This document shows positions 28,178 through 39,847 of a DNA stretch of 61,528 nt, one piece after another (position 1 is the first letter of the stretch; the number at the start of each line of letters is the position of its first letter). The DNA is from an uncultured Clostridia bacterium (lineage in GTDB: Bacteria; Bacillota; Clostridia; TANB77; CAG-508), in NCBI GenBank assembly GCA_944388705.1, contig CALXJU010000005.1:1-61528 (forward strand), given 5' to 3'. The notes under the pieces are model-generated. The model saw nothing but the letters and a program-made list of their open reading frames with translations. It was not told the DNA's origin and searched no databases. The translations under genes and the position numbers were made by a program.

Positions 28178-28351
28178 TCTTCAATCAAATAAATTAAAGA
28201 TTTTTAAAAATCTCGATATTTTATCATATTTTAAATTACATATATTATTTAATTTTTATTTTTTAAAATTTTATTCTAAATATATCTTGATTTTTTTAAT
28301 ATTTATTGCTATATTAATTTTATAAGTTTCTTTAATTTATTTGATTAAGGA
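28178..28351 (+). promoter_or_regulatory. Putative invertible promoter switch A (OFF relative to pilin A)
   Basis: Sites TCTTCAAT-CAAATAA-ATTAAAGA (28178-28200) and TCTTTAAT-TTATTTG-ATTAAGGA (28329-28351) with inverted spacers; TTGATT(28287)-17bp-TATATT(28310) with TG extension in between. Confidence 0.75.
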
Positions 28352-28523
28352 AATTTTTTTATTTTTAATTTCTAAATTTTTATATCAAAATTTAAATTAT
28401 ATGATTTTAGAAAAGTATAAAAATAATGATGAAGCTATAGAAAGTCTAGATAAAATTAGAAAAATTTTTACTAATAAAAAATAAGAAATTAAAGAAATAA
28501 AGCTGATTATTAGTTATCTATAT

Positions 28524-28765
28524 TCTAATCGGTATTATTAGAACCTATTGTAATCTCATTCCTTTGTTCTTCTGTTCCTTTGTAATTTACTGTTGTTAAA
28601 ATATTACAAGCCCAAAATGCATTATCGCCTATACTTGTCACACTATTTGGAATTATTATACTTGTTAATCCAGCGCAATTACAAAACGCATTATCTCCTA
28701 TTATCTTTAATCCACTAGGTAATTCTACTATTTTTTAAGTTTCATTTGACTTATTAAAACAAAAT
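28524..28765 (-). pseudogene. 3' remnant of another pilin-LRR gene
   Basis: Translates as LPSGLKIIGDNAFCNC..IPNSVTSIGDNAF..VNYKGTEEQ.NEITIG, similar to the C-terminus of 31789..32931; frameshifted and 5'-truncated. Confidence 0.75.
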
Positions 28766-28767
28766 AA

Positions 28768-29097
28768 GGCTATGGGAGAATACAGAAAAACATATTAACA
28801 AAAGTTTATGCAGTTAGGAAAAATAAAGATAATGAAAAACTTTATCTTTCACCAATAGTAGATTTATTTAATGGAGAAGTAATTAGTTTTAATCTCTCAA
28901 GACATCCAGTATTTGCACAAGTAGTAGATATGCTAGAGAAAGCTTTTAGTGAAATACCAGATAATACAAAATAAATTATTATAATAATAAAAGAATAAGA
29001 GGTAAACTAAAAGGAATGAGCCCCGTTCAATACAGAGTTCATTCCCTAGTTGGTTAGTACCTAGTCAAAAAATGTCCAATTTTTTTGGTTCAGTACA
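28768..29097 (+). mobile_element. IS3-family transposase remnant (internally deleted)
   Basis: KLYLSPIVDLFNGEVISF and YYNNKRI..KLKGMSPVQYR fragments; terminal TGTCCAATTTTTTTGGTTCAGTACA ending in CA. Confidence 0.85.
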
Positions 29098-29420
29098 AGT
29101 GTGTAACACACTACAATACTTTTTTAGCCGATGGCAAAAAGTATTAGTGTGGCAGGGAAAAATTTATTTTTCCCCACACCCCTTTTCCTAAAAAATATAA
29201 ACATATTTTTTAGGTTTTTAAAATAAATTTGCTATTCGCAATTTTATTCTAAAAAAATCAGCCACTAAAGTAGTTTATCTACTCTAGTAGCTGATTTTCT
29301 ATATGCAAATGTAACTTTTCACATTTGCATATTATTTAGCATATTGTCTGTTAGAATATCTTTCCTTTTATTTGCCTTTATTTTTAGTTTTTTTCGTTTT
29401 TCTTTTGTTTTTTAAGTAAT

Positions 29421-30383
29421 TTATCTTTTGTTAATTTGGTAAGATATCATTTCTGGAATTCTTGTACTATCTACACTTCTCTTTCCAATTTCTAATGCTA
29501 AACAGCTTTGACTTGAACATACCATATTTATGGTTTTTATGTGATTTAACTTTTGTGAAATTTCTTCAATTGTATCAAAGATACTATTTATATATTCATT
29601 CAATTGCTCTTTATATCTAATTGTATTGTCATAAGGCTTGTCAACTTCTAACTTGATAATATTACATTTTTCTTCAAATTGTCTTAATTGTATATCTGTA
29701 ATATTTCTAGTTATTGAAATAACTATAACCAAATTGTCTTTATTCATATCTAAGTCTTCTAATTTTGTTCTCAAATTTAACTTAGGGTATTTTTTATTTT
29801 TCTTGTGTTCAAGTTTATAATAATTTTTTGTATCTATTTTATCAAACTCATAATAATCATCTATTTCTTCTCTTTCCAAGAATGTCCCTGCATACATTAT
29901 AAAAGGAATTGGTGCTATTCCAGTATATCCTCTTTTTCCTTCTATTGTTTCGTTTTTAAATGCATTTACTTGGTCTTCTATTTGCTCCAATATACATTCA
30001 CAACTTTCTTTATCTAATCTATTACAAAAAATTTTCTTATATATATTTACAAAATTAATTTTCCTCTCTCTAAAATCATTTCTAATATCTTTCTTCATTT
30101 TGAAATATGGCTCTATTCTTTGTCTCATATATCCATTAATATTTAATACACATACTTTTCTTTTCGAATAAAAATTCAGTATAACAGTAACTATTATTAA
30201 AAAAATTCCCAAAAAGAAATAGTATAAATTAAAATCTTCTACAAGTTCATTAATATCATTTCTATTATTTATGATTGCAACAATTTTTACTAATGTATCT
30301 TGCCAGTTTCCAGATGCTTGACTCAAGAATCCTATTCCTGCTGTTAAAATAGTAGCAATAAAACTTTGTTCTTTTAAATTCAA
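29421..30383 (-). CDS. 2TM-SAVED domain protein (CBASS-type effector), probably truncated
   Basis: Two N-terminal TM helices, YTGIAPIPF..YAG, VISIT..I, and S.QSC.ALEIGK typical of SAVED; TTG start, abrupt end. Confidence 0.7.
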   Translation of the reverse strand: MNLKEQSFIATILTAGIGFLSQASGNWQDTLVKIVAIINNRNDINELVEDFNLYYFFLGIFLIIVTVILNFYSKRKVCVLNINGYMRQRIEPYFKMKKDIRNDFRERKINFVNIYKKIFCNRLDKESCECILEQIEDQVNAFKNETIEGKRGYTGIAPIPFIMYAGTFLEREEIDDYYEFDKIDTKNYYKLEHKKNKKYPKLNLRTKLEDLDMNKDNLVIVISITRNITDIQLRQFEEKCNIIKLEVDKPYDNTIRYKEQLNEYINSIFDTIEEISQKLNHIKTINMVCSSQSCLALEIGKRSVDSTRIPEMISYQINKR

Positions 30384-30452
30384 TTCTAAGTTAAAAAGTC
30401 CAATAAAATGTTAAAAAATAAATTGGTCAGACGCGTCTGACCAATTTATTTT

Positions 30453-38012: not shown

Positions 38013-38043
38013 TTTCTCTCAACCTTTCTTTTGTTTTTATTTT

Positions 38044-38220
38044 TCATTAATTTCTATAATTGAGGATTTTAATTTATTTCAAAGTTTATAATTTCAAGCT
38101 ATTTTTAATTAAAAAATAATATTTTTATAGGACATATAAATTTTTAAAAATATCTTGACTTTAGTCTTTACTTCTGTTATATTAAATCTATAAAATTTCA
38201 TTAATTATAGAAATTAATGA
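38044..38220 (+). promoter_or_regulatory. Putative invertible promoter switch C (OFF)
   Basis: TCATTAAT-TTCTATA-ATTGAGGA (38044-38066) and TCATTAAT-TATAGAA-ATTAATGA (38198-38220); TTGACT(38155)-17-TATATT(38178). Confidence 0.75.
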
Positions 38221-38305
38221 AAAATATAATAGCATTAGTTATTTATATTCAAAATTAATTTTTTAGAATATCCCAATATTAGAATTGAGATATTCTATTT
38301 TGTTA

Positions 38306-39601
38306 TTAGTATAAGAATATATATACTTTTAAAAAATCTTCTTCTGTTCTAAATCCTTCTTCCTTTATCATTTCATTGAAATCTTCTCTAGTTAATCCAT
38401 TTTTTGTTAAAAAATCATCAAAACTTCCTGTTCCTCCGTTTTTTTCTGCAAACATTTGCTCTAATTCTTCTACTGTCTTTCCTTCTGCATTATTTTTTGA
38501 AACTTCATATTCAACACCTAACCAAGAGCTTCTATCTATTAGTGTATTTTTTAAATACTCTATATAAGTCATTCCATTTTCTTTTGCTGTTTGCTCTAAA
38601 TCATTTCTAGTCGTATTCGTTTCGTTTAGAAATTCTTCAAATGTACCTATATAATATACTGACTTTAATATTAATTCCTCTACTTCTTCTTGATTTTTAT
38701 CTAATAAATAATTTGTTGCAAATTCTTTAAATTGTATATCTCCTAGATATAATATTTCTGTACTTTCCCCTGCTCCCCATGGTTCTCCACTTATTGTTCC
38801 TTCATCATTATATATTGTTATTGTTTTTAATTCAAAGCAATTTAGAAATGCTTCTTCTCCTATACTTACTACACTAAATGGAATTTCTATGTTTTTTAAT
38901 CCTTCACAATAACAAAAAGCACGCGCTCCTATAGTTGTTACTCCTTCTGGAATTATTATTGTTTCTATATTTTTGAAGCCCCAACTATATCCACTAAACA
39001 TATAATCTGCTATGTGTGTAACTTTTATTCCATTTATTTCACTAGGAATCTTTATATATTTATATGGAAGAATCCCTCCTGTAACACCATCATCTGTATA
39101 ATAACTTAATTTATCCTTTATACTAATTGTTCCATCGTCTGTTATTTCAAAAAAATCAGGGTCTGTTTCTGGTATAGTTTCTTCTGTATTTCCTAAATCT
39201 CCTAAATCTGTTTTATTTCCTTTATTATCATAATAGTATAAATGGTTATCCTCTATTACATATACATCTTTATTATTACTTCCATTTCCTGTTTTTAATT
39301 TTTGTTCTACTAAATTTAATACATTTATTATATTATTTTCATCTATTATTTCATCATCTCTAAGTAATTCTAATTTGTCTTTTGTATATGTTCCTTTATT
39401 TTCACTTAAATATTGAGATAATTTTAATCTTAATGCTTCTAACACTGTTCCATTATCATTTTTCACACTTGCTTTTTGTGCTTGAGTTACTATCCCATTT
39501 TCTCCCGTTAGCATTGATATACTTACTCCAGCTAATATTAACAATACTACAATAGTTACTACTAACGCAATTAATGTAATTCCACTTTCTTTTCTCTTCA
39601 T
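38306..39601 (-). CDS. Type IV pilin-like protein with LRR (pilin D)
   Basis: SG|ITLIALVVTIVVLLILAG, LRR_5 repeats, shared C-terminal module. Confidence 0.8.
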   Translation of the reverse strand: MKRKESGITLIALVVTIVVLLILAGVSISMLTGENGIVTQAQKASVKNDNGTVLEALRLKLSQYLSENKGTYTKDKLELLRDDEIIDENNIINVLNLVEQKLKTGNGSNNKDVYVIEDNHLYYYDNKGNKTDLGDLGNTEETIPETDPDFFEITDDGTISIKDKLSYYTDDGVTGGILPYKYIKIPSEINGIKVTHIADYMFSGYSWGFKNIETIIIPEGVTTIGARAFCYCEGLKNIEIPFSVVSIGEEAFLNCFELKTITIYNDEGTISGEPWGAGESTEILYLGDIQFKEFATNYLLDKNQEEVEELILKSVYYIGTFEEFLNETNTTRNDLEQTAKENGMTYIEYLKNTLIDRSSWLGVEYEVSKNNAEGKTVEELEQMFAEKNGGTGSFDDFLTKNGLTREDFNEMIKEEGFRTEEDFLKVYIFLY

Positions 39602-39668
39602 TTTCTCTCAACCTTTCTTTTGTTTTTTATATTATATTACTTTACAGGACATTTATAAATATCCTATT

Positions 39669-39832
39669 TCTTTAATTATTATGATTTACGATTTTATTTT
39701 TTACTAAATTATAGTATTTTAAATGGTTTAGAAATTAAAAAGAAAATATTTATAATTACAATTTTTTTCAAATATCTTGATTTTGTAAATTTTTTTTGAT
39801 ATATTAATTTCGTAAATCATAATAATTAAAGA
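39669..39832 (+). promoter_or_regulatory. Putative invertible promoter switch D (OFF)
   Basis: Perfect 25-bp inverted repeat 39667-39691 / 39810-39834, spacer TATTATG/CATAATA; TTGATT(39777)-17-TATATT(39800). Confidence 0.8.
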
Positions 39833-39847
39833 AAAAAGAACAAGTAA

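Follow-up and report, generated by a model that had tools for sequence, protein, structure and literature searches.

Predicted invertible promoters upstream of prepilin-like leucine-rich repeat genes belong to a genome-wide family in an uncultured Clostridia bacterium

Four genes for prepilin-like leucine-rich repeat (LRR) proteins in the genome of an uncultured Clostridia bacterium (lineage Bacillota; Clostridia; TANB77; CAG-508) are each preceded by a predicted promoter that points away from the gene, and this locus raises the question whether such promoters can be turned round and, if so, by which enzyme. The window analysed was contig CALXJU010000005.1 of assembly GCA_944388705.1 at its full length (61,528 nucleotides (nt), forward strand). 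The assembly, referred to as G000, is a metagenome bin of 1,603,928 base pairs (bp) in 65 contigs (26.4% guanine plus cytosine (GC), 95.8% complete, 2.7% contamination); its contigs are named C1, C2 and so forth, the window being C5. Window DNA was present in 20 sequencing runs from 10 studies (chicken gut metagenomes), and the genes of the window were annotated over about 25-43 kb. The four elements, termed switches A to D, are probably invertible promoters (invertons) and members of a genome-wide family with sites of the tyrosine recombinase type.

Switches A to D and the family to which they belong

Sites of the form TCNTNAAT-N7-ATTNANGA occurred exactly eight times in the window, against 0.04 expected, and none of 100 shuffled sequences reached eight; the pattern had been fitted post hoc to these same sites. 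A preliminary description of the locus had reported eight 23-bp sites, and all of them were found where it had placed them (Table 1). The four pairs that they form are the four longest (I1-I4) of 47 inverted repeats at most 400 nt apart in positions 26000-42000. Within each pair, the 7-bp spacer of one site is the exact reverse complement of that of the other, again as described, with the sequences TTATTTG in A and B, TTCTATA in C and TATTATG in D. The two sites of D make up a perfect inverted repeat (0/23 mismatches). The segment length of 135-147 bp given previously was corrected to 118-131 bp between the sites, which corresponds to 141-154 bp from centre to centre.

Each segment is predicted to carry an outward-reading promoter of the sigma-A type. 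The four promoters lie on the + strand, 10-20 nt from the right-hand site and with a TG one base 5' of the -10 box, and the genes run leftward on the - strand, in agreement with the orientation away from the genes that had been proposed. In DNA of 26% GC, pairs of -35 and -10 hexamers alone are not significant (101 seen, 105 expected). The promoter call is based on AAATATCTTGATTTT-N12-TGnTATA, which is conserved and identically placed in 19 paralogous switches. In B and D, the distal site is directly followed by a terminator-like hairpin, which would insulate the switch from read-through as well as stop an outward (OFF) transcript at once.

In sites of tyrosine recombinases, inverted arms bind the enzyme and strands are exchanged across a core that matches the core of the partner site. 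This layout, which the preliminary description had attributed to the sites, was recovered in a set of 38 sites (19 pairs) from G000, read from the outside to the inside of the switch. They have an 8-7-8 structure, in which the arms TCnTTAAT and ATTAAnGA are inverted copies of each other around a 7-bp core. All 38 sites have the same base at five positions of the outer arm (1, 2, 4, 6 and 7) and at four of the inner arm (17, 20, 22 and 23). Among the variable arm positions, inner position 21 agrees within 16 of 18 pairs and its outer counterpart, position 3, within only 8 of 18 (tally made from the site listing). The core is identical in 18 of the 19 pairs (126/126 nt), and between loci a mean of 4.36 of its 7 positions match. 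A core of odd length cannot be palindromic, which guarantees its polarity. The sites do not have the form of serine-invertase sites (2-bp crossover, 12-bp half-sites), given their odd length and variable 7-bp centre.

The exact site pattern gave 34 matches in G000. When up to two mismatches were allowed, 20 pairs of sites about 150 bp apart were obtained, 19 of them with inverted spacers and one with parallel spacers. The pairs on C15 and C41 represent one switch, so that 19 assembled switches were counted, and two more, each divided between the ends of two contigs (C35/C2 and C58/C64), bring the number to 21, or about one per 75 kb. Two solo sites were located at C1:85973 and upstream of C50:1815. 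All switches align as one family, whose conserved blocks are the sites and the promoter, the rest of the interior being only about 60% alike; a composite promoter-plus-site pattern had 19 matches. Switch sites were present at most 450 nt upstream of 20 of the 24 genes with a GITLIAL-type N-terminus, the four without them being C4:28074, C8:43847, C14:24791 and C16:4929. Two switches serve other positions: that at C3:50801 faces an open reading frame of 2951 amino acids (aa), and that at C7:37291 has no pilin-like neighbour. The notion of a bank of four switches was thus too narrow, the set being genome-wide. The genome scan for site pairs that had been suggested along with it did find them at most GITLIAL genes, and the 20 linked genes support the proposed control of the pilin-like LRR family by such switches.

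Inversion was observed directly for one member of the family. When bases 1-283 of C15 were compared with bases 1-283 of C41, bases 55-229 (site, interior and site) were 100% identical, and the 54-nt flanks were swapped and reverse-complemented. In C41 the promoter is directed toward a GITLIAL gene, and in C15 away from it; both sets of junctions therefore existed in the sequenced population. Contigs of the assembly overlap by 77 nt. In addition, eight of the 130 contig ends lie at most 57 nt from a site (about 0.6 expected by our own rough estimate), and these ends belong to five different switches. For the switches of the window themselves, we infer that they flip in the same manner.

These observations bear on two accounts that do without inversion in place. 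The 23-bp sites might be operators of a dimeric regulator that flank a fixed divergent promoter, as suggested by the palindromic arms of each site and by a second palindrome, AAGATATTTACAAATATCTT, which is present in many leaders and whose half-site AAATATCTT adjoins the -35 box of the invertible promoter. Operators do not explain, however, why spacers are reverse complements within pairs and differ between loci, nor do they account for the C15/C41 swap, the contig breaks or the promoters that lie near the gene in some paralogues and away from it in others. The swap and the spacer logic bring this explanation close to refutation, and we regard it as extremely improbable. Alternatively, the switches could be mobile cassettes akin to miniature inverted-repeat transposable elements, which carry an outward promoter and were inserted either way round without flipping thereafter. 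The elements are numerous and scattered, each about 175 bp long with inverted repeats at its ends, and lie either way round relative to genes; a gene on C16 that lacks a switch has an orthologue with one in the related genome G041. Yet each copy has its own 7-bp core, the same at both ends and different between copies, whereas mobile copies would share their ends; no target-site duplications were found in the 8-nt outer flanks, and one locus (C15/C41) was assembled both ways. Insertion of mobile cassettes is therefore very unlikely to be the explanation.

Among 17 assembled switches linked to pilin-like genes, 4 were ON, 12 OFF and 1 in both states, and both states were also found in the related genomes G041, G042 and G024. 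Two further comparisons between orientations were discarded. Locus L031 of G041 (promoter facing the gene) and its counterpart on C20 of G000 (facing away), with flanks that are 86% identical, were considered as a flip between sister species; their interiors were equally dissimilar in both alignments (0.61/0.61) and their spacers differ. Contigs C38 and C42 of G042 start with the same site, but are two sides of one unassembled switch. Locus L033 and the switch at C7:37291 of G000 are orthologous and have the same orientation (0.85 vs 0.60). A search of metagenome contigs with gene D returned three distant LRR matches only and no contig of the same species.

In the mechanism that we propose, a tyrosine recombinase would pair the two sites of one switch, with one monomer on each 8-bp arm, exchange strands within the 7-bp core and invert the segment between the sites. 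In the ON state, the promoter would read through the site and a leader of 25-80 nt into the pilin-like LRR gene, whereas in the OFF state it would read outward, at B and D straight into the terminator hairpin. The 21 switches would put about 80% of the 24 prepilin-like surface proteins under separate, stochastic control. No switch belongs to the type IV pilus machinery genes or to the short pilin gene adjoining them.

The preliminary description had also viewed the spacers as addresses that prevent cross-talk. This holds in so far as cores differ between most loci: 20 switches of G000 have 18 distinct spacers between them. A and B share TTATTTG, and three other loci share TTATTTA. The spacers are no more distinct than expected at random (observed mean similarity between loci 4.25 of 7 positions, against 4.25 for random draws of the same positional composition, a test that cannot separate neutral drift from selection for distinctness), and relatives reuse spacers. 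Insulation by distinct cores and drift with homogenisation within pairs fit the data from G000 equally well. Owing to the spacer that they have in common, recombination between A and B could invert or delete the 4.8-kb block between them.

Candidate recombinases and their bearing on the switches

No recombinase gene was seen in the annotated part of the window. G000 contains ten matches to Phage_integrase and three to serine-recombinase (resolvase-domain) families, none of them on the window contig; the three serine recombinases are all large (327-516 aa). The most likely invertase, judged from sequence, is a tyrosine recombinase of about 310 aa (C1:72722-73656) that would act in trans. It has Phage_integrase and SAM-like N-terminal domains, scores above the cut-off of none of the named equivalogs and is closest, among solved structures, to 6EN0, named only 'Int protein', which we take to be the Tn1549 integrase. 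The sequence 5' of the start of the candidate aligns in G000, G041 and G042, and the upstream frame in G000 reads as an HD-GYP-like protein. The earlier suggestion that the recombinase is encoded elsewhere agrees with the lack of a recombinase on the window contig and with a candidate on another contig, and is weakened by a frameshift in this best candidate.

The switch family has a narrow distribution. The composite promoter-plus-site pattern was absent from all 40 sampled relatives (24 of the same genus), and a scan of species-representative genomes yielded 15 stretches, 13 of which are in four metagenome-assembled genomes (MAGs) of uncultured Clostridia or Clostridium (CALXXZ01, 5; CAMEJH01, 5; CAKOVP01, 2; CAKOWW01, 1). 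The other two, in MAGs of Berkelbacteria and Phycisphaerae, look like chance hits and were set aside. A nhmmer profile built from the G000 switches recovered those of G041 and G042; matches in G024 were marginal (E = 7e-5 and 0.0065), and G010 gave no match. Further relatives were surveyed through sampled upstream regions of their pilin genes. G041 and G042 have the same arms as G000 and mostly distinct spacers, some of which equal those at orthologous G000 loci. In G044 (arms TCCTAAAG/CTTTAAGA), 6 of 15 pairs share the spacer TATTTAA, in G043 (arms TCGTTAAG/CTTAATGA) nearly all sites have TATGTAA, and G024 and G010 show further arm variants. Arms thus vary between genomes, and private spacers are not a constant feature of the family. 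At locus L029 of G041, the orthologue of the C16 gene has a full switch, and C16:4929-4991 of G000 keeps the leader palindrome without a switch, which suggests that the switch was lost in G000.

The candidate has intact orthologues in G041 (92% identical) and G042 (84%), the two relatives with the G000 arm sequence. In G044, where the arms have changed, the orthologue has 55% identity and a switch 2.1 kb away. In G024, four of five copies of the recombinase abut pilin-like genes (loci L087-L090), and at L088, the one case that was read through, the switch is located exactly between the stop codon of the recombinase and the pilin gene; this order may be the ancestral arrangement in cis. All eight genomes that carry the recombinase (G000, G041, G042, G044, G024, G010, G005 and G011) have switches. 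In three genomes free of it, none of 30 pilin loci had a switch (G015, 0/12; G019, 0/11; G022, 0/7; shuffled control, 0/74), zeros that are lower bounds because the script for 8-7-8 sites missed switches of G024 that were legible by eye. The action of one recombinase on all switches is suggested by association only, namely shared arms, co-occurrence and adjacency. Two other recombinases of G000 were considered and rejected: a 333-aa protein (C1:22304), whose orthologues are 62-65% identical in switchless relatives, and a 373-aa protein on C3, which is 98% identical in G041 and missing or distant elsewhere. Both behave like integrases of mobile elements.

A housekeeping recombinase of the Xer type could flip the switches instead, without any dedicated invertase. 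The candidates would be the XerD equivalog at C23:10046-10939 or a XerC-like protein of 334 aa on C6. A distance of 210 bp separates the end of xerD from the switch at C23:9673-9836, the gene product passes the equivalog cut-off (351.7 vs 329.6 bits), and in G043, which bears switches, no Phage_integrase match other than XerD was obtained. In Clostridioides difficile, the recombinase RecV is described as a member of the XerC/XerD family that is not located on a mobile element (PMC2784873). To judge from hit sizes and identities, however, nearly all of the 40 relatives seem to encode XerD- and XerC-like proteins, and none of them has this switch family, so that the occurrence of Xer-type proteins does not follow that of the switches. 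G041 and G042 do not share the adjacency, as their xerD contigs lack a nearby site, and the chance that some switch lies that near one of ten recombinase genes was estimated at about 9%. When G000 was scanned with a XerD-arm motif for a dif-like site akin to the switch arms, 88 weak hits were obtained, none of them convincing in this AT-rich genome. We consider it quite unlikely that Xer proteins drive the switches and retain the recombinase on C1 as the candidate.

Several observations weigh against an active set of invertons governed by this enzyme. The genomes compared are related to one another, and their kinship makes the contrast of 8/8 with 0/3 overstate the association. G031 and G035 encode homologues that are 42-44% identical, and had no switch at any of three sampled loci each. 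Conversely, G043 has switches and no detected copy of the recombinase in an assembly of 1.2 Mb that may be incomplete. In G000, the candidate gene is one base short in a run of eight adenines (A8) relative to its intact orthologues and is split into two frames; the gene may be dead, misassembled or switched by slippage. The two cores of the pair C7:25071/25223 (C7:25071-25245) are parallel, with the central 3 nt reversed (GTA vs TAC). A pair of this polarity should not support inversion, and the switch, whose promoter faces its gene, may be locked ON. The window shows the OFF state only. Moreover, since the assembly is a metagenome bin, the C15/C41 mixture could represent co-existing strains fixed in different states. 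Finally, a fixed element in the leaders of 11 of 20 pilin-like genes, including gene D, could make their expression partly independent of the switches.

The consensus frameshift in the candidate, the parallel pair as a locked configuration, a pseudogene reading of gene C (see below) and the 2.7% contamination of the bin can also be combined into the view that the switches are relics, frozen in this strain by a broken invertase, with C15 and C41 derived from two co-existing strains. This view would require many heterogeneous junctions in one sample, as eight contig ends fall at the sites of five switches. Relics would be expected to decay, whereas spacers are perfect in all but one pair and the arms are constrained, and an A8 run may undergo slippage or miscalling. 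Frozen relics are thus an unlikely interpretation, and functional invertons are the one that we prefer.

It is possible, if doubtful, that the invertons form a self-insulating system with two levels, in which shared arms and private cores let each switch flip alone and suppress recombination between switches, and in which the invertase is itself switched by slippage between A8 and A9. If so, inversions and deletions of tens of kb between switches would be avoided in a genome of 1.6 Mb, providing a natural counterpart of engineered heterospecific lox sites, and slippage would let the lineage alternate between a shuffling and a frozen adhesin repertoire.

Pilin-like genes, leader elements and neighbouring sequences

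Genes A to D (Table 1) start with M-K-x-K-(x)-G-ITLIALVVTIVVLLILAG, and all four score above the cut-off of 27.7 bits for LRR_5 (BspA-type, Pfam). Matches to the Pfam family N_methyl stayed below its cut-off of 21.2 bits in gene B (16.0) and gene D (18.2), and gene A had no match. Prepilins as a rule have a glutamate at mature position 5. In all 24 members of the family this position is alanine (glycine followed by ITLIAL), and the genes are for this reason named pilin-like rather than pilins. The four pilin-LRR genes of the preliminary description were confirmed as a family, with the qualification that gene C is frameshifted. Its 48 N-terminal codons are in one frame and a 373-aa body (36716-37837) is in another, with the break after about codon 41 in a locally GC-richer stretch; gene C is either a pseudogene or the product of an assembly error.

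Table 1. Features of the window associated with switches A to D (positions in the window;., no strand assigned)
Feature	Position	Strand	Description
Gene A	26922..28145	-	407 aa; N-terminus MKEKGITLIAL...; LRR_5 35.2 bits
Switch A	28178..28351	.	Sites 28178-28200 and 28329-28351; spacer CAAATAA/TTATTTG; 128 bp between sites; repeat I2
Switch A promoter	28287..28315	+	Predicted; TTGATT-17-TATATT, TG extension; directed away from gene A
Gene B	31789..32931	-	380 aa; prepilin-like N-terminus; LRR_5 80.1 bits
Switch B	32964..33137	.	Sites 32964-32986 and 33115-33137; near-identical copy of A with the same spacer; repeat I1
Switch B promoter	33073..33101	+	Predicted; TTGATT-17-TATATT, TG extension; directed away from gene B
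Terminator-like hairpin	33142..33175	-	Upstream glycosyltransferase gene; 5 bp past the distal site of B
Gene C	36716..38012	-	One-base frameshift near 37885; LRR_5 51.2 bits
Switch C	38044..38220	.	Sites 38044-38066 and 38198-38220; spacer TTCTATA/TATAGAA; repeat I4
Switch C promoter	38155..38183	+	Predicted; TTGACT-17-TATATT, TG extension; directed away from gene C
Gene D	38306..39601	-	431 aa; prepilin-like N-terminus; LRR_5 54.1 bits
Fixed leader element, gene D	39631..39665	-	Imperfect palindrome AGGATATTTATAAATGTCCT and TTTATA-17-TATAAT (39659-39631) facing gene D; outside the invertible segment, before the ribosome-binding site
Switch D	39669..39832	.	Sites 39669-39691 and 39810-39832; spacer TATTATG/CATAATA; repeat I3
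Switch D promoter	39777..39805	+	Predicted; TTGATT-17-TATATT, TG extension; directed away from gene D
Terminator-like hairpin, bidirectional	39835..39868	.	Upstream glycosyltransferase gene; 3 bp past the distal site of D

Genes for pilus machinery are present in G000, comprising a Peptidase_A24 (prepilin peptidase) gene at C2:2303-2641, T2SSE genes at C4:24180-25322 and 23319-24131 and a T2SSF gene at C4:21711-22691. The PilB-, PilT- and PilC-like genes are on C4, near the switchless GITLIAL gene at C4:28074, which encodes 173 aa.

The leader palindrome, which is imperfect and has the consensus AAGATATTTACAAATATCTT, was found between the proximal site and the ribosome-binding site in the 11 leaders mentioned above. 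Its centre and a downstream TATAAT form a pair resembling TTTACA-17-TATAAT that is directed at the gene. The best genomic matches to the palindrome (at most two mismatches) are all beside switches or GITLIAL genes, the switchless C16 gene included. Loci of G000 with the element, apart from that in the window, are C12:27216, C29:158, C35:17293, C42:231, C58:2790, C3:50979 and C16:4967. The element may act as an operator or as an additional, regulated promoter. The preliminary description had called all four switches of the window OFF, which is accurate in that all invertible promoters face away from their genes; for gene D, OFF may not mean silent.

In the window, the pilin-like genes alternate with glycosyltransferase genes and a gene for a Wzy-like O-antigen ligase (33174-35717 and 39848-41921), forming an island of surface-structure genes. 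Between switches A and B (29421-31508), a SAVED-domain protein (320 aa) and a YhcG/DUF1016 nuclease of the PDDEXK type (351 aa) are encoded, their genes separated by a perfect palindrome of 23+23 nt at 30411-30456; the two may constitute a defence island. No Rfam family was matched in 26000-42000, and the whole window gave a single tRNA. G000 contains more than 40 copies of a hairpin-forming repeat, about 90 nt long and dispersed through the genome, in which AT-rich inverted ends enclose a GC-rich centre. Two copies are located in the window (23035-23126 and 3398-3489), where they had no Rfam match, and one (C23:9886-9977) lies between the C23 switch and xerD. C17 (1-130) and C29 (1-122) begin with the same GC-richer sequence of 77 nt, which interrupts two different pilin-like genes about 20-25 codons into their reading frames, a short way 3' of their switches. 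It may represent a repeat that was not assembled or an insertion into the conserved part of the gene that encodes the N-terminus.

Comparison with known systems

No report of invertible promoters before prepilin-like or BspA-LRR genes was found in the literature, although the supplements of two inverton surveys (PMC11602134 and PMC11892184) may list such loci. In a survey of a defined community, Clostridia-like Firmicutes had a median of three invertons per genome (PMC11892184). A small-genomed, uncultured lineage such as the present one, whose relatives appear among MAGs of the human-gut type, may persist on a host surface or a partner cell through phase variation of its adhesins. Proxies based on the abundance or expression of pilin genes can miss the ON/OFF state; such pilin proxies were used for another uncultured Clostridia order, in an article without any mention of inversion (PMC11680825). 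Switches of this kind also break short-read assemblies at predictable places, as seen for the contig ends of G000. The uniform 8-7-8 sites with their core variants would make a test set for the influence of core identity on the partners that a tyrosine recombinase chooses, and might supply parts for orthogonal switches.

For Candidatus Mycoplasma girerdii, which has a reduced genome, at least 28 BspA-type LRR proteins are described, several of them phase-variable in a natural population studied by metagenomics (PMC5476646). Switching there occurs by slippage of dinucleotide repeats in or near the genes, as opposed to promoter inversion in the present case. The formal analogue of spacer addresses is provided by heterospecific lox and FRT variants engineered for Cre and Flp, which have the same arms and different cores and, as matching cores are required, yield orthogonal pairs. 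These variants are laboratory constructs, whereas orthogonality of the spacers described here is only putative and is not kept in related genomes. With the fimS element of Escherichia coli (FimB/FimE), the switches share a promoter in a short invertible element before a pilus subunit gene and the use of a tyrosine recombinase, and the gene order in G024 mirrors fimE-fimS-fimA. The fim system differs in having a single switch, a chaperone-usher operon and two adjacent recombinases, compared with about 21 switches and a predicted trans-acting enzyme in G000.

Mpi of Bacteroides fragilis is one global serine invertase for many dispersed, invertible polysaccharide promoters with a shared repeat consensus. 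The promoter inversions of this system are noted in PMC2268961. It resembles the present family in its dispersed invertible promoters with a shared consensus and in the combinatorial surface variation that they generate; the asymmetric 7-bp core and 8-bp arms found here do not fit the 2-bp crossover of a serine enzyme. To our knowledge, the switches of C. difficile number fewer than ten, their repeats are dissimilar and share no site consensus, and several work through a terminator or a riboswitch and not by carrying a promoter. RecV is described as acting on several switches in trans (PMC2784873 and PMC5903667), and the repeats of cwpV are stated to occur nowhere else (PMC2784873). The RecV-dependent switches (cwpV, flgB, cmrRST and others) are similar to those of G000 in that a trans-acting tyrosine recombinase would serve surface or motility switches of a Gram-positive gut anaerobe, and different in that G000 has 21 near-uniform promoter cassettes.

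Ahead of RecV and Mpi, the closest system appears to be mpl of Mycoplasma penetrans, the repeats of which are 12 bp long. The mpl (P35) family is described as comprising 38 lipoprotein genes at several loci, most of them with an invertible promoter of their own and switched independently, with Xer-like proteins as candidate recombinases (PMC2268961, citing Horino et al. 2003). Both systems combine a large family of surface proteins, a small, AT-rich genome of a host-associated organism, an invertible promoter for each gene and tyrosine recombinases as candidates. Unlike in mpl, the targets described here are prepilin-like LRR proteins rather than lipoproteins, the host belongs to the Clostridia, and the sites have an explicit 8-7-8 structure with a locus-specific core. 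New features are the prepilin-like LRR targets and the uncultured host lineage, together with the high number of switches for a genome of this size and an explicit arm-core-arm site whose core varies naturally.

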